Origin: an uncultured virus (IMG/VR IMGVR_UViG_3300020445_000001)
Taxonomy: Duplodnaviria; Heunggongvirae; Uroviricota; Caudoviricetes
Direction: 5' to 3' (one strand)
DNA length: 64,000 nucleotides
Virus record (IMG/VR): IMGVR_UViG_3300020445_000001
In this document: positions 2,707 to 63,096 of the stretch, one piece after another
Numbering within the stretch: position 1 is the stretch's first letter
Layout: every line of letters starts with the position of its first letter
Made by a program: the position numbers and the translations under genes
Notes under the pieces: model-generated
What the model was told of the DNA's origin: nothing
Seen by the model: only the letters and a program-made list of their open reading frames with translations
Database searches by the model: none

Positions 2707-2828
2707 TTTTCACATCTACAATACTTACAAACTTCTATTTCATTTCCACTTCTGTCTATGTCACTTACATATCGTGTTCCACAATGAGAATCGTGTCCAC
2801 AATTTGAACAGAATGAACTAGCTATCAT
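2688..2828 (-). CDS. small Cys/His-rich metal-binding protein (46 aa)
   Basis: CxxCGHxxHC...CxxCxCxxC; ATG at 2828 overlaps the end of iscU. Confidence 0.65.
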   Translation of the reverse strand: MIASSFCSNCGHDSHCGTRYVSDIDRSGNEIEVCKYCRCEKCQDRG

Positions 2829-3210
2829 CACAACTGCACTTTCTTTTATAATCAGAGATCGCAGACTTGACAGCATCTTCAGCAAGAACTGAACAATGTA
2901 TCTTAACTGGGGGAAGTGCAAGTTCGGTTGCAATCTCGGTGTTTTTAATTGATTGTGCATCGTCAATGTGAGCTCCTTTCAGCCACTCAGTAACTAGCGA
3001 ACTACTGGCTATTGCAGAACCACATCCAAATGTTTTAAATTTTGCGTCTGTTATTTTACCTTTGTCATTAACTTCTATCTGAAGTTTCATAACATCACCA
3101 CACGCCGGCGCTCCTACTAAACCAGTACCTACATTTTTCTTATCTTTATCTAATGAACCAACATTTCTTGGGTTCTCATAATGGTCTAATAATTGTTTAC
3201 TGTACGCCAT
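2818..3210 (-). CDS. iscU: Fe-S cluster scaffold protein IscU
   Basis: DHYENPRNVG, GAPACGDVMKLQI, FKTFGCGSAIASSS, LPPVKIHCS motifs. Confidence 0.97.
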   Translation of the reverse strand: MAYSKQLLDHYENPRNVGSLDKDKKNVGTGLVGAPACGDVMKLQIEVNDKGKITDAKFKTFGCGSAIASSSLVTEWLKGAHIDDAQSIKNTEIATELALPPVKIHCSVLAEDAVKSAISDYKRKCSCDDS

Positions 3211-3243: not shown

Positions 3244-3552
3244 TTATGGTTTTCTCTTCTCTGTAATACTATTTTGACAAGGATAACCTATGCTTGTTGT
3301 AACAACAACGGTTTCTTTATCACTACATTGATAAAAACATTTTCTTTCTTCATCTTTTCTACTTCTATCTATTTCTTCATCATATATTCTACAGAATACA
3401 GAATACTCTTGTCGTTCACCATAAGTTCTTGCATTTTTCCTTTGATATGTTTTGCCTTTACCAAATGTTAAATCTGGAAAGGAAATCATTATTACATACC
3501 AAATTAATGAGGCAATAATAATTCTAGACACTAAAGGATTCTCCACAACCAC
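3244..3552 (-). CDS. hypothetical membrane/secreted Cys-containing protein
   Basis: N-terminal hydrophobic segment and 4 Cys; lies between iscA and iscU. Confidence 0.6.
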   Translation of the reverse strand: MVVENPLVSRIIIASLIWYVIMISFPDLTFGKGKTYQRKNARTYGERQEYSVFCRIYDEEIDRSRKDEERKCFYQCSDKETVVVTTSIGYPCQNSITEKRKP

Positions 3553-3850
3553 AACTTGACTTTGTGAGTGGATTATTTATTTTTAGGAAACTACCCATTA
3601 TCTCTTGTACATAATCTATTTCAGCACCCATTATATACATCTCTGCAACTTTATCTACTGCAAGTGATACTTCGTCTTTTATGTGAAATATGGTATGACC
3701 TCTATCAGGCTCATCTATATAATCCCACTTGTAACTGAAACCAGCACAACCACCACCACTTACACCAAAAGAAACAAACTTCTTGTCGTTCTTTTTTGCA
3801 ATGTCGTACAAATATTTTTTTGCGTTTTCTGTTATAGTAATCATAAACAA
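3524..3850 (-). CDS. iscA: A-type Fe-S carrier (IscA/HesB family)
   Basis: GGGCAGFSY and SCGCGESF motifs. Confidence 0.95.
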   Translation of the reverse strand: MFMITITENAKKYLYDIAKKNDKKFVSFGVSGGGCAGFSYKWDYIDEPDRGHTIFHIKDEVSLAVDKVAEMYIMGAEIDYVQEIMGSFLKINNPLTKSSCGCGESFSV

Positions 3851-3860
3851 TCCTTAAATA

Positions 3861-3868
3861 TATTTATA
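3861..3868 (-). promoter_or_regulatory. T4-type late promoter TATAAATA
   Basis: Exact consensus just upstream of iscA. Confidence 0.75.
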
Positions 3869-5577: not shown

Positions 5578-6093
5578 TCAGACTTGTCTTGACTTGTCAA
5601 CCCCCATAAAGTGTAAATATGTACTCATTATAAACTTAGGTTCTTTCTTAGGCATTTCACCTTCGTGTGGGTACATCCACATTGGTGGAAATACAACTAC
5701 ACTACCTTTTTCTGCTGGTACATATGTCTTTTCAAATTTAGTACCAGCCTCACTTGTATTTAAATAAAATAGTAGTGCAAGAAACCTTGTGCAATTTTGT
5801 ATATTACCAGCGTCAGTATGCCAAGGGAAACTGCCCTTATTTGGTTCATACCTTTTAACTCTAAAACCTTCTAATGCAAATGGTTCTGGGTGTTGATTTG
5901 TTTTGTCGTGCAACTCAAAATAATGGTCTGTAACTTTATAAACTATATCTTTCATATAGTTTGAAAGTTTATGTTGAGTATCTATTTCAACTTGTGTGAA
6001 ATTACCATAATCAATAGGCTCATTTGAATCATAATAATCCAACAAGTCTTTTACCAAATCATCTGGTAAAATGTTCTTGTATAGTTGTATCAT
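5578..6093 (-). CDS. 2OG-Fe(II) oxygenase (prolyl-hydroxylase-like)
   Basis: WHTD...FYLN...FP...YPHEG...K: HxD...H facial triad. Confidence 0.9.
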   Translation of the reverse strand: MIQLYKNILPDDLVKDLLDYYDSNEPIDYGNFTQVEIDTQHKLSNYMKDIVYKVTDHYFELHDKTNQHPEPFALEGFRVKRYEPNKGSFPWHTDAGNIQNCTRFLALLFYLNTSEAGTKFEKTYVPAEKGSVVVFPPMWMYPHEGEMPKKEPKFIMSTYLHFMGVDKSRQV

Positions 6094-19831: not shown

Positions 19832-20424
19832 TACTTTTTACTTTTTGTTAAGTTAATGAGTTTCATTTTATACTCTGTTTCGTTAATTGTCAATAGTGAA
19901 TTGTAATTATTTAATTTGTTTCTATGATTAGGCCAGATAATGTTTTCACTTATTTGTTTATCCCAATCCTTTTGATAGTTTACTAACTTGTTTAATATAA
20001 TCATTGTTTCTATATTGATTCTTTGTGATAAATAATTTCTAAACAATATTGGGTGTTGTCCGTTTTCAACAGTAAATAATTTATTAAAATCTGTAACTTG
20101 ATTTAACAACAAGTTCATATCTTGTTCAAACATATATCTTAATGATTGATGTCTTTTTTTCCAATCTGTAAAGTTTCTATCATTGAACTCTCCAATGTAT
20201 CCTTTTTCATTTCTTAAAAAATTAGAAACAAAAAAGTCTTGAGTTTCATCACCATACTTTCTTGCAACTTTACCAAAAAAGTGTTTGTCTTTTCTTTTTA
20301 AATAACTTGATTTACTAGCTCTGGTTTTACCACCATACTTTGTAAAGTCATAGTCTGAGTTGAAGTGTGCTTTCAGACCCATATAAATTTTAAATGCATT
20401 AAAGGCGTCCATAATATGAATCAT
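19831..20424 (-). CDS. gp59: helicase loader gp59
   Basis: Y..LK.HF..YDF.KY.GK...RKDK.FF motif; next to gp33. Confidence 0.9.
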   Translation of the reverse strand: MIHIMDAFNAFKIYMGLKAHFNSDYDFTKYGGKTRASKSSYLKRKDKHFFGKVARKYGDETQDFFVSNFLRNEKGYIGEFNDRNFTDWKKRHQSLRYMFEQDMNLLLNQVTDFNKLFTVENGQHPILFRNYLSQRINIETMIILNKLVNYQKDWDKQISENIIWPNHRNKLNNYNSLLTINETEYKMKLINLTKSKK

Positions 20425-20630
20425 ACTGGTAGTTTACCCATTTTAGGTAAAAAGTTTAAATCTCTTGCGTTTGCTTCTATTTTATCTTTAAGTGGTTTTT
20501 GGATTAGACCAGTTATACTATCTGGTTCTACTTCGTTCTTGGTACAATATTCTAATATTGCATCCATATGTGATATGTTTTTCTCTCTGACTTGAGATTC
20601 TATGTATATTGAAAATGTTTTTGGTGTCAT
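20421..20630 (-). CDS. gp33: late transcription coactivator gp33
   Basis: FS..IE...MDAILEYC...LKDKIE..A..LNFL. Confidence 0.9.
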   Translation of the reverse strand: MTPKTFSIYIESQVREKNISHMDAILEYCTKNEVEPDSITGLIQKPLKDKIEANARDLNFLPKMGKLPV

Positions 20631-20658
20631 AATGTATTCACAATCTAATAAAAATTAA

Positions 20659-20702
20659 TAAAAAAGGGTGGGTTCAAACCTCAAGGGTATTATACCCCAC
20701 CC
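20659..20702 (-). terminator. probable terminator after pqqA
   Basis: GGGTGGG...CCCACCC stem followed by TTTTTT on the minus strand. Confidence 0.65.
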
Positions 20703-20715
20703 AATTTCTGCGAAA

Positions 20716-20793
20716 TTACTTCTCAGCGCAAGCGTAAGAATTAATTTCAAGACCTACTGAAATTTCAGTAATAGTTGGTTTTGACCAAGCCAT
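20716..20793 (-). CDS. pqqA: pyrroloquinoline quinone precursor peptide PqqA (25 aa)
   Basis: MAWSKPTITEISVGLEINSYACAEK with W.KP...G.E-I-N-S-Y (ExxxY); AGGAG RBS. Confidence 0.92.
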   Translation of the reverse strand: MAWSKPTITEISVGLEINSYACAEK

Positions 20794-20816
20794 AGTTATT
20801 CTCCTAACTAGTATTG

Positions 20817-20848
20817 GAGTGCTGGTTGCCTTGGGCCGCAGACCACTC
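20817..20848 (-). other. GC-rich RNA hairpin in the pqqA leader
   Basis: GAGUG...CACUC closing stem with inner CUG/CAG and GCC/GGC pairs. Confidence 0.55.
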
Positions 20849-20858
20849 ATTATTAAAT

Positions 20859-21104
20859 GGTGAGTATTCTGTTACTAGGAACTCACCGAACCCTATCAGA
20901 TTAAGCAGCTAGTGCGAAATCTTGAAATGCAAAGTTATCGTTTGCGTTTATCGTTTTGACCTATAAGGAAGTCAACCCATACTCTCCAACAACCCTTTAA
21001 CATCTGTCTACCCTATTTCACCCCCTCATTAGAGGCTTTTTGGTGGAGGTGGAGGGTACTGCCCCCTCGTCCAGTCTATCTCAAAGTCGTCTTCGTCAAG
21101 TATC
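20859..21104 (-). ncRNA. ssrA: circularly permuted two-piece tmRNA (alphaproteobacterial type)
   Basis: Acceptor piece ending CACCTCCACCA (3' end at 21041) precedes a 15 nt spacer and the coding piece starting GGGGGTG (21025); G3:U70 pair; tag ORF 20945-20901 reads ANDNFAFQDFALAA*; outer boundaries approximate. Confidence 0.93.
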
Positions 21105-21109
21105 CTTTA

Positions 21110-21117
21110 TATCTATA
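21110..21117 (-). promoter_or_regulatory. late-promoter variant TATAGATA upstream of the tmRNA
   Basis: One mismatch to TATAAATA at the expected position. Confidence 0.5.
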
Positions 21118-21158
21118 AATTACATTTCTGTAAGTTATATGAACAAACTGTTAATTTG

Positions 21159-21845
21159 TCATTTACCAGTCTCTACAGTATTATAATATAGATTTAACTC
21201 TTTGTCAAGTAGATGCAAATATTTATGTTTATCTTTTACAAACTCTTGAACTGTACCGTCTTCTGTAACCACTAATATAACTATCTGGTTTATCTCTTGT
21301 GATGTTCTTTCTTGATACATCTCTGCATATGCAGAGGCTTGTATATAATAGTTCTCATTCCAATTATCTTCTCGTTCTTTGGTACTTGTTTTGAAATCAA
21401 TTACAGACAACTCTCCGTTCCACTCTGCAATACAATCAACCCTACCAGCAATCTTATAAAAGTCGTGCCATAATGCTCTTTCTTGACAATGTATCAATCC
21501 AATTCTTTTATCTAAATATGGTTTTAGTTGTGAGAACAAACAATAAGATAGAAATCTACCTTTTTTATATTCATTCCAATCTTTGTTCTCATAACCATTG
21601 TCTAAATACTTTTCACAATAATGATGTACTTGAGTTCCTCTTGTTGCAGATTTTCTTGAAACATAAGTTGCAACATCCTCACCAACTCTTTTTCTCCACT
21701 CAAATAAACCTTCTTTACCTCTGTTTTTTAAAACAGTAGTAATAGATGGATAAAACTTACCTTCTGGTGTTTCGTATAACCTTATACCATCAGAAGTCTT
21801 AGCACTTATGTCTGGTATATCTAAATTATTTTTGTGTTGGAACAT
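21159..21845 (-). CDS. PD-(D/E)XK exonuclease (Cas4/RecB-like); start probably MFQHK
   Basis: YPSITTVL, RGT.VH, AGRVDC..IDFKTS and Y.Q..AY motifs. Confidence 0.9.
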   Translation of the reverse strand: MFQHKNNLDIPDISAKTSDGIRLYETPEGKFYPSITTVLKNRGKEGLFEWRKRVGEDVATYVSRKSATRGTQVHHYCEKYLDNGYENKDWNEYKKGRFLSYCLFSQLKPYLDKRIGLIHCQERALWHDFYKIAGRVDCIAEWNGELSVIDFKTSTKEREDNWNENYYIQASAYAEMYQERTSQEINQIVILVVTEDGTVQEFVKDKHKYLHLLDKELNLYYNTVETGK

Positions 21846-21930
21846 TCTTTTTCTTATATTCATCTGGTACTTTTCCATAACCTACAACTCTATCCCATTC
21901 TCTTTGAGTATAACCTTTTTTATCTAACAT
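21826..21930 (-). CDS. small hypothetical protein (34 aa, MLDKKGYTQREWDRVVG...)
   Basis: Hand-translated; fills the gap with overlaps on both sides. Confidence 0.55.
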   Translation of the reverse strand: MLDKKGYTQREWDRVVGYGKVPDEYKKKNVPTQK

Positions 21931-22463
21931 TTTCTATTAATTCCATTATAAGCTATTGATATTCTTTTTTCTTTAGTGTCACCTATGTAATGTTGTAACA
22001 TAGAATTAAAAACTATTAGATGTCCAGTTCTAGCATTAAATTTATAATAATCACTATTATATTCATTAAACTCGTCTATCATATCATTAGATTGATGAGA
22101 TATTAATGATTGCATAGGATTTAAAAATGAAATGTGACCGTCTGTTGCCAAAGGATAATATACAGCAGATATAAAAGATTCTCTGTGATTATGTGGTTCT
22201 GTTATTAAATCATCATTATTAACATTTGACCAAGCTTGTGATACTACCATATTATATTTGTCATTATATATTTTACTATAATACTCATTCATTTTTATTT
22301 TTACAACATTATTTAATTCTGTAAATATATTATTAGTGAGTATATCTTTATTTTCTTTCACACCATTTCTGATTGAATTTTTTTCTGAATAGTTAATAAT
22401 TGATTCATTATCTATACCTTCTAATTTAAATGTTTCTATGCCTGTTGAAAATATATTTTGCAT
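21924..22463 (-). CDS. 2OG-Fe(II) oxygenase (TIGR02466-like)
   Basis: W.N...PHNH..ISAVYY...FNS.LQH...RISIAYN. Confidence 0.85.
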   Translation of the reverse strand: MQNIFSTGIETFKLEGIDNESIINYSEKNSIRNGVKENKDILTNNIFTELNNVVKIKMNEYYSKIYNDKYNMVVSQAWSNVNNDDLITEPHNHRESFISAVYYPLATDGHISFLNPMQSLISHQSNDMIDEFNEYNSDYYKFNARTGHLIVFNSMLQHYIGDTKEKRISIAYNGINRKC

Positions 22464-22952: not shown

Positions 22953-23522
22953 TTAAAAATTTACCTTGTAACTCACACCTATTGCATTATATTGACTATC
23001 ACCTCTTTTAAATTTACTTCCGATACCTATACTATTATTCTTATCAAGGTTATAAGATATCTCTGCCTTATATGTAGTGTCTGATTGTTCGTATATAGAA
23101 TCAAAACTATCTCTGAATCTTACACCACCTTTAATACTCCAGACATCATTTAATTTATATTTTAGACCAGGCTCTATGTGCCAGTATTCGTGACTTTTAT
23201 CTCTAGTGAACTTATATCCAGCACCACCTCGTATGTACATACTAAGTTTACCATAAACTTTTTTAGAACTTATCAATGCAAATTCTGCTCTCTGGTCATT
23301 ACTGGTAGAACTATCTTTTACTTTTAATCTTGTTTTTATTTCAGCAGAGAATACATCATTTAGTTTCTTACCAACAGTAAGTCCATACTCTGATGCATTT
23401 TTACCACCATTCAATCCGTCTTGTAAACCATAACCAAATTTTGCATAATAACCATCTGCACTTACAGTAATAGGTAATGCAACAATACTTGCAATCATCA
23501 AATATTTTTTCATTATTGACAA
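22953..23522 (-). CDS. outer-membrane beta-barrel porin-like protein
   Basis: Signal peptide, alternating amphipathic beta strands, C-terminal GVSYKVNF (Bam signal). Confidence 0.85.
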   Translation of the reverse strand: MSIMKKYLMIASIVALPITVSADGYYAKFGYGLQDGLNGGKNASEYGLTVGKKLNDVFSAEIKTRLKVKDSSTSNDQRAEFALISSKKVYGKLSMYIRGGAGYKFTRDKSHEYWHIEPGLKYKLNDVWSIKGGVRFRDSFDSIYEQSDTTYKAEISYNLDKNNSIGIGSKFKRGDSQYNAIGVSYKVNF

Positions 23523-23728: not shown

Positions 23729-24433
23729 TTACTCTCCTAGACCAAGTTTTGTTTTTTCTATTAAATAATTACGAACAAAACCAGAACGAACAATATCACC
23801 TATTGTAAATTCTACTGTTTCAAATTCTTTCATTTGTTCTAATATTCTCATAAAATCTTGTAGTCCTTCTTTTTCACTCATCTTGGTTAAATCTGATTGA
23901 AAGAAATCACCACAAAATATAATTTTACTATCTTGACCAACTCTTGTAACAATCGTATCTAATTCGTGAAAGTTACAGTTCTGAGATTCGTCAACAATTA
24001 CGACAGCATTATCTAATGTTATACCACGAAGATATGAAGTTGTCAAGAAGGTAACACTACCTTGATTCTTTAATCTGTCGTATAACATACTAAATGCATT
24101 ATCACTTGATTGTTCAAACATAAACTGAACCATATTATGATATGGTACTTGATACAATGCAGACTTATCTTCTTCATCACCAGGCAGAAACCCCATATCT
24201 CTTGTTGGAACAACTGAACGAATAATGATAACATTTTCGTACTTAGTTTTTGGGTCTAATACTTGCTCTAATGCAAGATACATTGATATAAAAGTTTTTC
24301 CAGTACCAGCTGCACCAAACAAAAACAAATTCTTATTGTCTTTTCTCCAGGCATTAAAGACTACCTTTTGATTATCTGTAATTGGTTTTACAGTAACTAA
24401 ATTATCTAATTTAATGTCTTGTTTTTTACTCAT
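23729..24433 (-). CDS. phoH: PhoH family ATPase
   Basis: GAAGTGKT, GFLPG, RGITL, VDESQN and GD..QSDL motifs. Confidence 0.96.
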   Translation of the reverse strand: MSKKQDIKLDNLVTVKPITDNQKVVFNAWRKDNKNLFLFGAAGTGKTFISMYLALEQVLDPKTKYENVIIIRSVVPTRDMGFLPGDEEDKSALYQVPYHNMVQFMFEQSSDNAFSMLYDRLKNQGSVTFLTTSYLRGITLDNAVVIVDESQNCNFHELDTIVTRVGQDSKIIFCGDFFQSDLTKMSEKEGLQDFMRILEQMKEFETVEFTIGDIVRSGFVRNYLIEKTKLGLGE

Positions 24434-25151
24434 AACTTTCCTCGTAATTATTTCCTAAATTATCAGTATATACTATTTTTTCTATATCACCACTAAACAA
24501 AATAAAGTAATGATTTTGTGATATACCGATTGTTCCCTCATATGAGAATATACCTTTACTTGTTTTAACAACAACAGAGTCAATATAATCTGCTGGTATT
24601 TCTGTTCTAGTTAATTGATCAAATTGTAGTCCAGAATAGTTTGGGTGATTGAATTGAATTTTCTTTTTATCAAAATGTAATTTATCATCAATAATATCTA
24701 CTCTATCTTTTGGTACACTACTATCAACTATTGGTGTTGCAGAACAACCACCAGCTGCCTTAATATACTTTCTATTATAAAATAAATTACCATCTATATC
24801 TTCTGCAACAACAGTTAAGTGTGTGTATGCATTTACTCTTATATTAGTTTCAATATACGGTAATAAACCTACAAATTCAAATGTTGCACAACAAGGTGTT
24901 GGATTCTCGTCTATAATTAAAGTAAATTTAATTAAGTCTTTTGACTTTGTTGTGATAACAATAGGAACATCACCACCATCTATTGCACGATAAGGTGATT
25001 TAATGATTATATCATCAGTTTGTTCTAAAAACTGTTCTTCATATAAATCATCTTTTAACCATTCATTCCAACTATCAGATGTAGAAAATTTAGGTATCAA
25101 CAATATTATACCAAGTATTATTAAACTAAGTGCGATTTTTGTGTTTGTCAT
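24426..25151 (-). CDS. quinoprotein dehydrogenase-associated SoxYZ-like carrier (fused SoxY-SoxZ, exported)
   Basis: Signal peptide; IIDENPTP, IRVNAYT..V.AE, KAAGGCSA, HPNYSGLQFDQLT..IPA.YI and ISQN motifs. Confidence 0.85.
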   Translation of the reverse strand: MTNTKIALSLIILGIILLIPKFSTSDSWNEWLKDDLYEEQFLEQTDDIIIKSPYRAIDGGDVPIVITTKSKDLIKFTLIIDENPTPCCATFEFVGLLPYIETNIRVNAYTHLTVVAEDIDGNLFYNRKYIKAAGGCSATPIVDSSVPKDRVDIIDDKLHFDKKKIQFNHPNYSGLQFDQLTRTEIPADYIDSVVVKTSKGIFSYEGTIGISQNHYFILFSGDIEKIVYTDNLGNNYEESYE

Positions 25152-29072: not shown

Positions 29073-29315
29073 TTATGTCCAAAAGTTCATTAAACCAACA
29101 ACTGATATAATAAACCCAACAGAGTTTAATAGTATGATAGAACCGTCTTTCCAATAATATCCAACACTAACCCATACAACACTACCAATGGTCATAAAGT
29201 ATAGGTTTAGTGGATAGATATTAAAAGATGTAAAACATAAGCCTGTCAACAATAGGATAGAACCAAACCATTTTAGACCTCTAACATCTTTTCTTTTTCT
29301 ATTTTTCTTATACAT
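29073..29315 (-). CDS. small multi-TM membrane protein
   Basis: KW.G...NIYPLN with three TM segments. Confidence 0.7.
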   Translation of the reverse strand: MYKKNRKRKDVRGLKWFGSILLLTGLCFTSFNIYPLNLYFMTIGSVVWVSVGYYWKDGSIILLNSVGFIISVVGLMNFWT

Positions 29316-29539
29316 CTTCTTGTACTCGCAGCCTTCTCTTTTCTTTTTCTTTCACTTCTAGTTTCAAAAAATTCTCTTTTGCGAAGTTCATTGAACATAT
29401 CTTCTTTTTGTAATTTCTTTTTAAGTTTTCTGATTGCCTTATCTACATTACCATTTTCTACTGCAACAGCAGTACCAGGCAATCTTTTCTCTGGAAATCT
29501 TTTCTTTTTATTAAATTTATGAACTTGTTTGAATCGCAT
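29273..29539 (-). CDS. rpsU: ribosomal protein bS21
   Basis: V.V..GNVDKAIRKLKKK...ELRKREFFE..SE.KR.K.A..RR. Confidence 0.9.
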   Translation of the reverse strand: MRFKQVHKFNKKKRFPEKRLPGTAVAVENGNVDKAIRKLKKKLQKEDMFNELRKREFFETRSERKRKEKAASTRRCIRKIEKEKMLEV

Positions 29540-31859: not shown

Positions 31860-31989
31860 CTACATTATCTTCATCAAGTTCTTCACCACAAAAAGGACAA
31901 TGTTTTACTTGATAGTATTCATCGTCCATATTATGGTTTATTTTAAATTCTGCTTCACAATAATCGCAATAAATTGTTTTTCCAGGCAT
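31843..31989 (-). CDS. small zinc-ribbon protein (48 aa)
   Basis: Hand-translated MPGKTIYCDYC...HCPFCGEEL; TAATG overlap with nrdJ. Confidence 0.75.
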   Translation of the reverse strand: MPGKTIYCDYCEAEFKINHNMDDEYYQVKHCPFCGEELDEDNVDEDTE

Positions 31990-33905
31990 TACTGAATCTC
32001 ACAAGAACCAGCAGAACACGCAAGTTCTTGTGAACCTACTGTCATATCAGATCTTTCATACTCTGATAACTTATTCCAATCAACACTAGTAGGCATTTTA
32101 TTCAACAAATCTTTATATTCCTTTTCATTACAATCTTGATAAGGTGCTTGTTTATATGTATGTTCACTATATGGTAAGAAACTAACTCCACTCATTAAGT
32201 CAAAATTCTTATATACCCAAGCTCCAACATCAATCCATTCTTCTTCTTTTACAGAAATAGTAACTGACGGTTTGTGTTCACACCAATGTACTTGATATGT
32301 TTTCCAAAGTTCTAGTTGTTCAATCGCAGTTAAATCTTGTCTGAATACTGCATCTGGACTACATTTTATTGGAAAAGAAAACACAGTAGTATCATTTGGT
32401 TTCATAACATCATCTTCATTAGGAAAACCTTCTTCTACCATCATCTTTGTAAGTGGGTCTTTCTTATCACCTCTTACAGTTCTAATATAATAAGGATTGT
32501 GTCTAGCGTGAATACCACTTGCACTATCTACTAATTGTGAAACAGTTCCAGACGGTTTTACACAAGTAATCGCAGCTGAGTGATTAATCTTTAATTTCTT
32601 AGACCAATCTTTGTTAGTATCTACTGACATTTGTTTAAGGTTCTTTAACAATAAATCTAAACCATTTAGTTTACCAGCTGTCCATTTATTATCCATAATA
32701 CCAGTAAGTGATACACCAAGTAATCTTTCTTCAACACAATTCTTTTTCCAATCTTTACTTACATATTTAAAATTAGTTAGTGTAGACTGAAATGTTCCAA
32801 GTATTGTTGCAAGTTTTACTTTTCTTAGTAATGTATCTTCTGTATCGTTTGGTCTGACAACAACTTCAGATAAGTTACAAAATTCTCTACTTCGTAAAAT
32901 TATTTCTGAACAAGGATTTGTTCCAAAATCATATCCAACATCTCTTCTTTCATTCTTCTCTGCAATTCTCTTTGCAGATTCTCTGTTGAATATTCCTCGT
33001 TCACCAGACTTAGAATCATAAAGTGCTTTCCATTCGTCCATAAAAATGCCTATGTCTGGTTTCTCAGTATAACAAGCAGAGTTATTTGCAAGTGCTCTTT
33101 GACCATTATCAATCCACCATTGACCAGACTTTGCAACTCTCATTCTATCGTCAGAAAGATTAGATAAACTAATTAATGCACTTCTTCTAACACCACCAAC
33201 AACAACAATCTCTGCCGTCTTACAAACAATGTCGTGACATTCAATAGAACTTAATTTTCTTCCGTGTGCATTTTGAAATATTTCTGTTGTGAATTCAAAT
33301 AATCTATGTAATGGTTCAGGCCCAGATGCACGACCACCAAAAGTTTTTAGTGGAGCACCAGCTGGTCTTACTTTAGTTAAATCCCATTTAGGTATTTGCC
33401 CGTGATATAACATTGCAACAAGTTCTTTAAATGCTTTTGCCCAACCCATTTTACTGTCTTGAACAACAATAGTCGTATCACTAGGGTGAAACTCTTCTGC
33501 AACTGTTGGTAGATTACCAACAAATTGTCTTTCAACTGAGAATCCTACTCCAGTTCCATTCATCAATACATATAGTATTTCGTCAAATGCTTGTGGTCTA
33601 TCAACTGCAACATAACTACAATTATAACCAGCAATATTTTCTCTTCTTAGTGCTTCACCAGCTGTCATTAAACATCTCATAGAAGGCATAATATCAAGAT
33701 GTATTACTGCATCTTCCAACTCTTCTCTCAATGACTTATCTAAATTATATTTACAACTTTGTTTCAAATGTTCTTGAAAAAAATCAAAGTATCTAGTTAC
33801 TGTTTCTCTCCAAGTTTCTCTTCTACCTTCTTTCGGTATCCACCTTGAGTATCTTGATAGGTGTATAAATTCTTGATAATTAGTTGGAAGTTTACCATTA
33901 AGCAT
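31989..33905 (-). CDS. nrdJ: class II (adenosylcobalamin-dependent) ribonucleotide reductase
   Basis: NCSY, GTGVGFS, VVVGGVRRSA, TNPCSEI, FCNLSE, KPSGT, EHKPS and C-terminal CxxGxCE; no nrdB adjacent. Confidence 0.93.
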   Translation of the reverse strand: MLNGKLPTNYQEFIHLSRYSRWIPKEGRRETWRETVTRYFDFFQEHLKQSCKYNLDKSLREELEDAVIHLDIMPSMRCLMTAGEALRRENIAGYNCSYVAVDRPQAFDEILYVLMNGTGVGFSVERQFVGNLPTVAEEFHPSDTTIVVQDSKMGWAKAFKELVAMLYHGQIPKWDLTKVRPAGAPLKTFGGRASGPEPLHRLFEFTTEIFQNAHGRKLSSIECHDIVCKTAEIVVVGGVRRSALISLSNLSDDRMRVAKSGQWWIDNGQRALANNSACYTEKPDIGIFMDEWKALYDSKSGERGIFNRESAKRIAEKNERRDVGYDFGTNPCSEIILRSREFCNLSEVVVRPNDTEDTLLRKVKLATILGTFQSTLTNFKYVSKDWKKNCVEERLLGVSLTGIMDNKWTAGKLNGLDLLLKNLKQMSVDTNKDWSKKLKINHSAAITCVKPSGTVSQLVDSASGIHARHNPYYIRTVRGDKKDPLTKMMVEEGFPNEDDVMKPNDTTVFSFPIKCSPDAVFRQDLTAIEQLELWKTYQVHWCEHKPSVTISVKEEEWIDVGAWVYKNFDLMSGVSFLPYSEHTYKQAPYQDCNEKEYKDLLNKMPTSVDWNKLSEYERSDMTVGSQELACSAGSCEIQ

Positions 33906-51465: not shown

Positions 51466-52038
51466 TTAAAACATTCCAGTTCTTGCATTTAAATTACCAG
51501 CAACCATAACTCTTTCAAAGTCAATTTCTTGTGGTGGTACTTTATGTTTTACCCAGCCTGGAAACATCACCAGTAATCCGTTTGACGGTTGTACTTTATA
51601 ATCTGTGTTTGTGAATACTAATGGTGAACATTGACTAGTTACATTAACATAGTATGTCCAAGACCATATCGCAGGCCAATGGTCGTGGGATACAGTATAT
51701 TCTCCCTTTTTATATACTGCACCCCAACAATCGTAACAATCTGGAATGAATTGTACTGGTGATACTTCTATTGAAATTTCTCTTACCCAGTTTACTAGTT
51801 CTTGAAAATGTTCACCACCAGCTTCTAATTGCATATTCCATTCAGTCATTTGTGCTTTTACATTTGACTTGTAATTTATTCTATCACCTTGTTGTCTGAT
51901 AAACTTTTCTAATATAGGGTTAAGAGTTTTCCATTTGTCATATGTTTTGAGAACAACTGGATATCTCTCTTTAAATAATATTTGTCTACCGTTTTTACCC
52001 CATATCGGTGGGTGGTCTTTCATTGGGTCATCTACCAT
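51466..52038 (-). CDS. 2OG-Fe(II) oxygenase
   Basis: WG..Y..G....HDH....YYV...FPGW.KH.V...R...AGN. Confidence 0.85.
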   Translation of the reverse strand: MVDDPMKDHPPIWGKNGRQILFKERYPVVLKTYDKWKTLNPILEKFIRQQGDRINYKSNVKAQMTEWNMQLEAGGEHFQELVNWVREISIEVSPVQFIPDCYDCWGAVYKKGEYTVSHDHWPAIWSWTYYVNVTSQCSPLVFTNTDYKVQPSNGLLVMFPGWVKHKVPPQEIDFERVMVAGNLNARTGMF

Positions 52039-61934: not shown

Positions 61935-62332
61935 TTTTTCATTCCACCTTTATTCAGTTTACTTTTGATAAACTCTATTTGTTTATCGTTAAGTATGTCA
62001 AGAATTGATTTAGCTTTAGAGTTATTATATCCATAATATTCTTTTACATACTCAAGATTTTTAGATTTACTTTCCTTTATCCAAGGGGCATATCTTTTTC
62101 TTGTTCTTATAGTATTTAGTAAAAAGTCATATTGCAACTTCTTGTCTTTGTCTAAAACTGAACCATAACGATTCATTTCATTCACTAATAATATACAATC
62201 ATTATGTGGTGCAAGACATTTATTTACAATAAAAGGACTATACTTTTTTTCGTACATATCGTCCTCACCGTCCATAAGATTATTCTTATTAAAGTTTAAA
62301 GAATTCAGATACTCTTTTAATTCATATGCCAT
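61931..62332 (-). CDS. gp62: clamp loader small subunit gp62
   Basis: Y.PFIVNK.L...NEMN...QYDF...YYGY..KA. Confidence 0.93.
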   Translation of the reverse strand: MAYELKEYLNSLNFNKNNLMDGEDDMYEKKYSPFIVNKCLAPHNDCILLVNEMNRYGSVLDKDKKLQYDFLLNTIRTRKRYAPWIKESKSKNLEYVKEYYGYNNSKAKSILDILNDKQIEFIKSKLNKGGMKK

Positions 62333-63096
62333 TACTTTGGGCTCTGTGCAAGTATCTTTTGGTCTGCAAGTAAAGGCATAGTTTTTAGTTCTATCTCAAA
62401 GTTTGCAGATAAAGTTCTTCTTTCCCCCTCACCATAGAATGGCGATACAGAGTGTTTTAACCAATTAGGAAACATTAATAATTTACCAACTTCTGGTTTT
62501 ACAAATGCTTCTTGAACTGGTTTTAATTGTTTAATATCACTAGTACAATTCATACCCCAACTAAAAAATGTGAAACCATCAGTAGTACCAGATGCATTAT
62601 TTAAATCTAGTTTAAGTCCACCAGTTTCATATTCTTTTGCACTACCAGATAGTTTTTCTATCTGTGGTGGTACTTTTAAATATAAAATGCAAGACATTCC
62701 AGTAGGCGTTTTGACGCCGTGATCGTGTAGTGGATTATAATCACCTTCATAACTATGAACTGTCCACATAGATACACAATCGCTTTTTGCATCTGCACAA
62801 CCTAGAAATTGTAGATATGAATGTGTGAAACCTTCAAGAAGTGCTTTCAAACCTTTTACTGGCTTATCTTCAAAGTTCATATCTAATTGTGCAGACTTTT
62901 TATTTGATTTGATTTGTCCTACAAGTTCGTGTGAAAAACTTTTTGCACTTCCTCTTACACCATCAATATACTCATTAAATTCATCTGTAACATATTCTGG
63001 TAAAAATACTTCCAACATATTTAATGCTGGTTTAGTAACCATTGACATCTTAATATCTTTTGCAAGACTAATTGCCTCTTCATTTGTATCAACCAT
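62332..63096 (-). CDS. 2OG-Fe(II) oxygenase
   Basis: GDYNPLHDH...YLKVP...FP.WL.H.V.PF...RR..S.N. Confidence 0.85.
   Translation of the reverse strand: MVDTNEEAISLAKDIKMSMVTKPALNMLEVFLPEYVTDEFNEYIDGVRGSAKSFSHELVGQIKSNKKSAQLDMNFEDKPVKGLKALLEGFTHSYLQFLGCADAKSDCVSMWTVHSYEGDYNPLHDHGVKTPTGMSCILYLKVPPQIEKLSGSAKEYETGGLKLDLNNASGTTDGFTFFSWGMNCTSDIKQLKPVQEAFVKPEVGKLLMFPNWLKHSVSPFYGEGERRTLSANFEIELKTMPLLADQKILAQSPK

Follow-up and report, generated by a model that had tools for sequence, protein, structure and literature searches.

The window, i.e. the whole 64,000-nt stretch of viral DNA analyzed here, carries on its minus strand a gene of 25 codons and a stop (20793 to 20716) that encodes PqqA, the precursor peptide of PQQ. 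The coordinates 20716..20793 and the translation into 25 residues given in the original prediction proved right; the strand, which it had left out, is minus, and the plus strand of the same stretch contains stops. The proposed identity is borne out by the profile HMM comparisons, in which the peptide scores well above both curated cut-offs (TIGR02107: 39.4 bits, E 3.8e-10, cut-off 20; PF08042: 32 bits, cut-off 21.1), and by the presence of the N-terminal W..P leader and of the Glu-x3-Tyr core, formed by E16 and Y20 and retained in all 32 close relatives that were found by their gp59 gene. The 25-aa ORF is PqqA, not a chance reading frame. A search of PHROG with the peptide gave no match. The Shine-Dalgarno sequence AGGAG, likewise predicted, is indeed found at 20805-20801 (minus strand), 7 nt before the ATG, and GGAG, AGGA or GAGG precedes 153 of 157 viral pqqA starts. 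A mechanical list of ORFs offers for pqqA a longer frame of 44 aa from an upstream ATG at 20850; this start was judged unlikely, because in four relatives (L015, L024, L029 and L031) a 1-nt deletion between the two ATG codons breaks the frame.

The window is a part of a T4-like marine phage, as indicated by its genes for gp32, gp59, gp33, DNA polymerase, clamp loader, helicase, primase and baseplate proteins; gp32 is 64% identical to that of Methylophilales phage Melnitz and 62.5% to that of Pelagibacter phage Mosig. It covers less than half of the phage genome, whose size is roughly 150 kb (the nearest record, of 48.7 kb, amounts to 32%). The pqqA gene is flanked by viral genes (gp32, gp59, gp33, an exonuclease, DNA polymerase and baseplate genes) and is not a host contamination. 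Directly upstream lies a permuted (two-piece) tmRNA gene of the alphaproteobacterial type (20858..21158, minus strand), recovered by Rfam (RF01849: 106.6 bits, RF04321: 113 bits); ARAGORN reported no tRNA or tmRNA for this region. A site scan revealed in the end of the exonuclease gene a perfect sigma-70-type site, TTGACA-17-TATAAT (21180..21208, minus strand), which is a candidate promoter for tmRNA-pqqA and is retained in some relatives only. The downstream neighbor of pqqA encodes a late-transcription coactivator similar to T4 gp33 (20421..20630, minus strand; PF16805: 65.4 bits).

Between pqqA and the gp33-like gene, folding identified a hairpin followed by a U run (20660..20702, minus strand; -18.8 kcal/mol, z -2.48, a value reached by 1 of 200 shuffles), with the outer stem GGGTGGG/CCCACCC, six T, and a long loop that contains a conserved inner hairpin. 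The downstream terminator claimed earlier is thus upheld as far as the hairpin and the U run are concerned, but it is not called by a simple terminator scan with a loop limit of 8 nt. Relatives have a hairpin at this site, mostly with a U run. The outer stem is variable, but the interior of the hairpin (GTATAAT..CC, a short loop and GG.TTGAA) is conserved in both T4-like clades. This interior occurs also in L048, L053, L055 and L152, is lost in some close relatives, and may resemble a motif of the loop-E/sarcin-ricin type. Contigs of one rRNA-depleted RNA run match 20578-20707 and 20715-20898 at 99% or better, and no other part of the 2.4 kb compared; contigs of a second run bridge the tmRNA end and the leader described below (20787-20938), and a third run has the tmRNA. 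Most RNA runs contain under a fifth of the stretch, and among the four compared the oligo-dT run has such broad coverage of the region that it possibly derives from DNA; stretches without coverage are uninformative. Contigs from such runs cannot show transcription, and their coverage of pqqA and its leader is therefore a weak hint of expression. Elsewhere on the minus strand the window encodes a phage ribosomal protein S21 (29273-29539; TIGR00030: 56 bits), an outer-membrane beta-barrel protein between phoH and the endolysin gene that is present in only some relatives (22953-23522; PF13505: 34.5 bits), four 2OG-Fe(II) oxygenases (5578-6093, 21924-22463, 51466-52038 and 62332-63096) and a ribonucleotide reductase of the B12-dependent type (31989-33905).

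The distribution of the gene was assessed by anchoring on gp59, which is independent of the peptide, and 34 of the 39 loci obtained had over 500 nt of upstream DNA. The arrangement tmRNA–leader–pqqA is present in 32 of these 34, all with gp59 identity of at least 78%, and is missing from the two with 35%, so that pqqA is fixed in the phage clade. When the gene of a SoxYZ-like protein was used as the anchor, pqqA was found in 39 of 62 loci, 21 others stop short of the site, and in 2 the genes are arranged differently, with no pqqA in the available DNA. In a distant T4-like clade (gp59 36–41% identical) the order is SoxYZ-like, iscA, small ORFs, pqqA, iscU, with no tmRNA (two loci read; Rfam on 11 loci). 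A back-translated pattern of the peptide core had at least 120 matches in viral contigs, as did its Cys variant. The Trp and Pro residues, which were not selected for by the pattern, are invariant in all 110 distinct viral PqqA cores, and third codon positions vary more (0.36) than the other two (0.12 and 0.11). Comparison of 23 distinct 25-codon genes with pqqA of the window gave 133 synonymous and 36 non-synonymous codon differences, counts that come from related sequences with core residues fixed by the search pattern. The codon changes indicate that the peptide is under purifying selection in the phage clade.

At least three groups of pqqA carriers can be told apart, with hardly any proteins in common and with the gene at different positions. 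Besides the T4-like phages there are phages of 56–59 kb that encode PolA, a primase/helicase and an ejection protein; the third group is represented by a fragment from a far larger phage. One 57-kb phage of the PolA group (L098/G447) has iscA, iscU and pqqA and no leader. Four other T4-like phages (L091, L114, L126 and L133) exhibit the order tmRNA-pqqA-gp33 with a different type of peptide and again no leader; since peptides of this type resemble those of other marine Alphaproteobacteria, several host groups are probably involved across the phages with pqqA. A tblastn search with the peptide against 50,697 GenBank phage records yielded only two matches of 40% (E 9), the SoxYZ-like protein had no match in the same records, and no cultured representative was found there at the tblastn sensitivity used; two protein homolog searches returned metagenomic proteins only. 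The SoxYZ-like protein is also encoded on complete contigs of 140–146 kb.

None of the 104 window proteins (14 + 90) matched PqqB, PqqC, PqqD or PqqE in NCBIfam, which agrees with the original prediction. Among 29 pqqA-bearing viral records neither pqqC nor pqqE was detected in searches whose positive controls gave matches; 7 of these records are at least 90% complete, and no T4-like record is over 32% complete. No PQQ alcohol dehydrogenase was found in 30 viral records. The further claim that the phage supplies only the substrate holds in that the enzymes that make PQQ are not carried, but it is too narrow, as the window also has a SoxYZ-like gene and the genes of IscU and IscA. The first of these encodes a fused SoxYZ-like carrier of the type associated with quinoprotein dehydrogenases (24426..25151, minus strand), with a hydrophobic N-terminus and a retained KAAGGCS arm. 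Its score against TIGR04557 (133.2 bits) is below the cut-off of 140, and therefore we file it as SoxYZ-like of the TIGR04557 type and not as a member by score; the homologs from three phage relatives pass the cut-off (140.9, 141.1 and 158.7 bits). According to the available part of PMC12997753, this family is tied to lanthanide/PQQ alcohol dehydrogenases, its role is unclear, and its function is untested even in bacteria. The Fe-S proteins are an IscU scaffold (2818..3210, minus strand; TIGR01999: 225.9 bits, cut-off 192.4) and a carrier of the IscA/ErpA type (3524..3850, minus strand; TIGR00049: 90.3 bits, cut-off 58.8), the latter behind a T4-late-type site, TATAAATA, at 3868. In the distant clade iscU follows pqqA directly and iscA lies between the SoxYZ-like gene and pqqA; in the window both are 17 kb away from pqqA and could serve other Fe-S needs.

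The phage peptide points to the order TMED127/Methylaequorales, which probably provides the host. PqqA of the window and the copies encoded by these bacteria have the same length, the pattern W..P..I.EI.VG.EI..Y with its E-x3-Y, and identical last 16 residues. This 16-residue tail is encoded in 38 of 42 TMED127/Methylaequorales genomes, with 1–4 copies in each, and in a class-wide sample it was found in 4 of 401 genomes, all four of them from the same order; it is this confinement that makes the order the likely host. Across 185,579 species genomes the tail occurs in 100 stretches, of which 95 are titled Alphaproteobacteria, Rickettsiales or Pelagibacteraceae, and at least two of the remaining five look like phage contigs in bins (L191, and L437, which has the leader of the viral L140). 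The closest cellular peptides among the matches listed agree in 22–23 of 25 residues and in up to 72 of 78 nt, and come from small, low-GC marine Alphaproteobacteria; these matches include five genomes given as TMED127 in the accessible supplements of PMC12542740, with 2–4 pqqA copies in 1.3–2.0 Mb. Three TMED127 islands (one annotated in full) contain pqqA-B-C-D-E, xoxJ- and xoxG-like genes, a PQQ dehydrogenase and a SoxYZ-like gene of their own, so that pqqB-E are present in the candidate hosts and were not found on the phage side. Stand-alone extra copies of pqqA exist in the hosts, too; unlike the host copies, the window gene is phage-borne, has no pqqB-E with it and follows a tmRNA and a structured leader. 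The host and phage SoxYZ-like proteins are both SoxY-SoxZ fusions with the KAAGGCS arm, the host gene standing beside the PQQ dehydrogenase, but a Cys-Cys pair (PTPCC) in the four phage proteins aligned is absent from the three host proteins. This pair is reminiscent of the vicinal cysteines of PQQ dehydrogenases.

In the available text of PMC12542740, TMED127/Methylaequorales are described as streamlined bacteria of the surface ocean, probably obligate lanthanide methylotrophs, and predicted to live only on methanol via XoxF5, a dehydrogenase that depends on PQQ and lanthanides; xoxF5 is their top transcript (16–57% of mapped transcripts), and a PQQ glucose dehydrogenase is also strongly transcribed. 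The parts of that paper available to us mention neither phage nor pqqA, and a literature search for TMED127 together with phage found a single TMED127 passage, about assembly. Other host-like genes lend the assignment little support: rpS21 and the SoxYZ-like protein of the phage are only 32–38% and 33–38% identical, respectively, to their TMED127 counterparts, and IscU, at 79–82%, is also 72–80% identical to that of many other bacteria, so that neither rpS21 nor IscU discriminates between hosts. The tag of the phage tmRNA differs from that of one TMED127 genome, and the tmRNA type was dropped as evidence for the host, as Melnitz shows that it does not fix the host (PMC9004378, available part). 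A second link to TMED127 is provided by the leader of one of its rpoH genes, which matches the leaders of podovirus-like phages at 57–58 of 65 nt. A box, ATGAA(T/C), which is possibly a site for a host regulator, is repeated upstream of TMED127 pqqA copies (L410-L460) and occurs in reverse upstream of several rpoH genes (L659-L687); a similar TTCAT repeat precedes the leader in the large-phage group (L064), and the window has a single TTGTTCAT before the tmRNA, at about 21147-21140.

Between the 3' hairpin of the tmRNA and the ribosome-binding site lies a structured RNA leader of 32 nt (20817..20848, minus strand), identified by covariation and by the match to its model, which is the one strong match in the window (46.9 bits). 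Its fold comprises a stem of 4–5 bp, a 2-nt bulge, a 3-bp stem, a CG/AAC internal loop and another 3-bp stem with a variable loop; the stems covary, but no change is seen in the G bulge or the CG/AAC loop, and the 3' strand overlaps the anti-Shine-Dalgarno sequence CUCC (20819-20816). In the alignment of 45 distinct sequences 96.7% of the cells of the ten pairs are paired, 7 of these pairs have two-sided changes, and the covariation score of 0.33, which can be inflated by the relatedness of the sequences, compares with 0.146 in shuffles and at most 0.077 for slid pairings; RNAalifold gives the same structure. Thus, as is looked for in a riboswitch, a conserved, covarying structure stands 5' of a gene on its sense strand. 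No Rfam family covers the leader at the gathering score or at E up to 10.

The strict pattern of this element is found in 59 viral stretches, always followed by pqqA and 53 times behind a tmRNA; a second variant occurs in 75, with pqqA following in 74 and the remaining one ending at the start of pqqA, and a third (CCG) variant in 49, with pqqA in 43. The other six matches of the CCG variant, together with one of 86 matches in metagenomes, lie in high-GC coding DNA and were taken as chance. Conversely, by a relaxed pattern the leader precedes 70 of 158 viral pqqA genes and is absent from 88, and the genes that have it are spread over three phage groups sharing almost no proteins. In genome loci it precedes only 4 of 212 pqqA genes, and those four are phage-like contigs; the idea that it is the leader of the host pqqA was rejected, as the host copies do not have it. 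The sole cellular home found is the rpoH leader of one TMED127 lineage (G410, 44.5 bits), i.e. 1 of 26 TMED127 rpoH loci scanned, to which 4 of the 86 metagenome matches can be added, with RpoH 80–100% identical to that of G410. We dismissed the possibility that the G410 match is a phage contig, as it has a pseudouridine-synthase-like gene on one side and rpoH, near purA, on the other, and as four metagenome contigs show it again. A loose pattern applied to 401 Alphaproteobacteria gave 6 matches versus 11 in the control, none in a plausible leader context.

Folding calculations at 25 C suggest that formation of the leader frees the ribosome site of pqqA. Forcing the element, as compared with blocking it, opens the Shine-Dalgarno sequence by 0.26 on average in 44 distinct leaders, versus 0.06 with shuffled spacers and 0.10 with randomized outer stems (maxima of 0.12 and 0.14 in 25 rounds); the opening exceeds 0.2 in 25 of the 44 leaders and is below -0.2 in one, compared with about 11 of 44 in the controls. 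The effect is +0.96 in the window, -0.02 in the rpoH leader and near zero in several other leaders. The related phages Melnitz and Mosig (Kyanoviridae) are T4-like, too, with gp32 62–64% identical, the order nuclease-tmRNA-gp33 and a permuted tmRNA (see also the available part of PMC9004378); Melnitz has a glutamine riboswitch (RF01739, 52.8 bits) and a short ORF in the slot that in the window is taken by the leader and pqqA. No PqqA ORF was found in that slot of Melnitz and none is annotated in Mosig, and the leader model matches neither region. The predicted effect on the Shine-Dalgarno sequence and the glutamine riboswitch of Melnitz in the same slot together make a ligand-sensing switch a possible, tentative reading of the leader.

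A protein-binding or stabilizing 5' element is at least as likely. The leader may not sense a metabolite at all, and could be a portable hairpin that binds a protein, stabilizes RNA or acts as a thermometer and has been exchanged between phages and the host chromosome, an explanation that we regard as about evenly balanced between right and wrong. It agrees with the presence of the element before rpoH, a gene unrelated to PQQ, at the few cellular loci noted above, with its position in several phages, where it follows -10-like boxes at a distance of a few bases, with its absence from the host pqqA copies and with its size of only about 32 nt. On the other hand, a plain stabilizing hairpin would not need an invariant unpaired G bulge and CG/AAC loop within covarying stems, and neither the opening of the Shine-Dalgarno sequence beyond both controls nor the proven riboswitch class in the same slot of a related phage is what it would lead one to expect. 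The literature searched contains no report that joins an RNA motif, pqqA and a riboswitch, and the searchable supplements of PMC10690425 (10,006 viral candidate RNAs) gave no match, although the leader may be among the unnamed candidates there.

In PQQ synthesis the Glu and Tyr of PqqA are cross-linked by PqqE with PqqD (PMC7936290, PMC9851590, available parts). One PqqA peptide yields one cofactor. The phage peptide would serve as a substrate for host PqqB-E. As PqqA alone among the components of the pathway is consumed, it would be the first to run out once host transcription has been taken over, and the phage could keep it coming from a transcript of its own, tmRNA and then pqqA. A continued supply would sustain holo-XoxF and the energy and one-carbon flow for phage replication. 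IscU and IscA might support the Fe-S clusters of the radical-SAM enzyme PqqE, and the SoxYZ-like carrier the maturation or protection of the dehydrogenase, both being weaker propositions; the leader would be a cis-acting RNA that tunes pqqA translation, its folding pulling the anti-Shine-Dalgarno strand off the ribosome site. Thus, we consider it probable that pqqA is a genuine auxiliary gene, with which a T4-like phage of TMED127 supplies PqqA and sustains holo-XoxF via host PqqB-E. Phage PqqA might also raise PQQ and dehydrogenase activity of the host, as was proposed originally. As far as the accessible literature goes, methylotrophs possess several copies of pqqA (the strain of PMC9851590 has five) and the effects of dosage are mixed, with an increase of 29% for pqqAB versus an eightfold one for pqqABCDE, and with the order pqqB > pqqA cited (PMC7936290); extra pqqA alone may add little PQQ.

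Or perhaps the phage makes PQQ for another end, such as the PQQ glucose dehydrogenase or redox protection during infection, possibly in another PQQ-using marine alphaproteobacterium? The strong transcription of the glucose dehydrogenase in TMED127 (PMC12542740, available part) fits this proposal, and so do the weak support for the host from other phage genes and the phage PqqA of the GLEINCY type, whose resemblance to peptides of other marine Alphaproteobacteria implies that the gene is not restricted to a single group of hosts. We nevertheless find it unlikely, as the variant in the window is found almost exclusively in TMED127, whose most abundant transcript is xoxF5 according to the same source, and the available part of PMC12997753 links the SoxYZ-like family to lanthanide/PQQ alcohol dehydrogenases. 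The opposite effect, in which an excess of peptide acts as a decoy or inhibitor that ties up PqqD and PqqE (or SAM or Fe-S capacity) and thereby lowers PQQ synthesis or redirects metabolism, could be read into the slower growth of Acetobacter on pqq over-expression (PMC7936290, available part); in a dead-end decoy, however, loss of a reactive residue would be expected, while the phage peptide is 23/25 identical to host copies with both E and Y intact, and the gene travels with apparent helpers of the same pathway, which makes such a role quite improbable. Least credible is a neutral passenger, i.e. a piece of host DNA that was acquired next to the tmRNA and is kept without being used. The slot behind the tmRNA does vary, with the riboswitch and short ORF in Melnitz and gp33 directly in Mosig, but conservation, namely the fixation in 32 of 32 close relatives, the synonymous excess and the occurrence of pqqA with a ribosome-binding site at different gene positions in phage groups that share almost no proteins, has largely refuted this reading.

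Supply of PqqA for methanol oxidation, which we prefer, can be extended to a broader scenario that we consider rather doubtful as a whole. Unrelated groups of ocean phages that infect Methylaequorales, which oxidize methanol more actively than any other bacteria of the open ocean, would have converged on supplying the PQQ precursor under a new, small class of riboswitch, which is traded with the host chromosome (rpoH) and switches translation on with a signal linked to methylotrophy (PQQ, a pathway intermediate, SAM or a lanthanide ion); the T4-like phages would add the Fe-S and SoxYZ-like helpers, making a module for cofactor supply.

The idea of a phage-encoded PqqA is not new, as it has already been published: the Lake Baikal virus VP_266 encodes PqqA, which was proposed to boost the methanol oxidation of its methylotrophic host (PMC7678222), and pqqA is listed among viral genes from a reservoir (PMC13188868). 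These are freshwater viruses, while the phage described here is marine, and the Baikal viruses also encode methanol dehydrogenase, in contrast to the 30 viral records mentioned above; the available parts of the two papers report no conservation, leader RNA or SoxYZ/Fe-S partners. We found no account of the clade-wide occurrence of pqqA in marine phages, of the host, of the helper module or of the leader in the literature searched, which included few subscription papers and not all supplements (the gene tables of PMC11360552 may list pqqA). What is new here is the covarying 32-nt hairpin, which precedes pqqA in three phage groups and rpoH in one lineage of TMED127.

If the proposed function is correct, phages would steer the oxidation of methanol in the surface ocean through an added supply of a 25-residue cofactor precursor instead of through enzymes of their own. 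Gene catalogs filtered by length would tend to miss such genes, of which one narrow pattern already gave at least 120 viral matches. With the PqqA variant as a sequence handle, phages could be assigned to TMED127, an uncultured order, and with its small size the leader makes a convenient candidate for a new regulatory RNA. The SoxYZ-like gene of the phage points at a step in the maturation of lanthanide dehydrogenases that is poorly understood. Finally, in Melnitz (L694, 6646-6815) we observed an unannotated plus-strand ORF with a ribosome-binding site behind the glutamine riboswitch, where the record annotates an ORF on the minus strand; the riboswitch may control the plus-strand peptide rather than the tmRNA.
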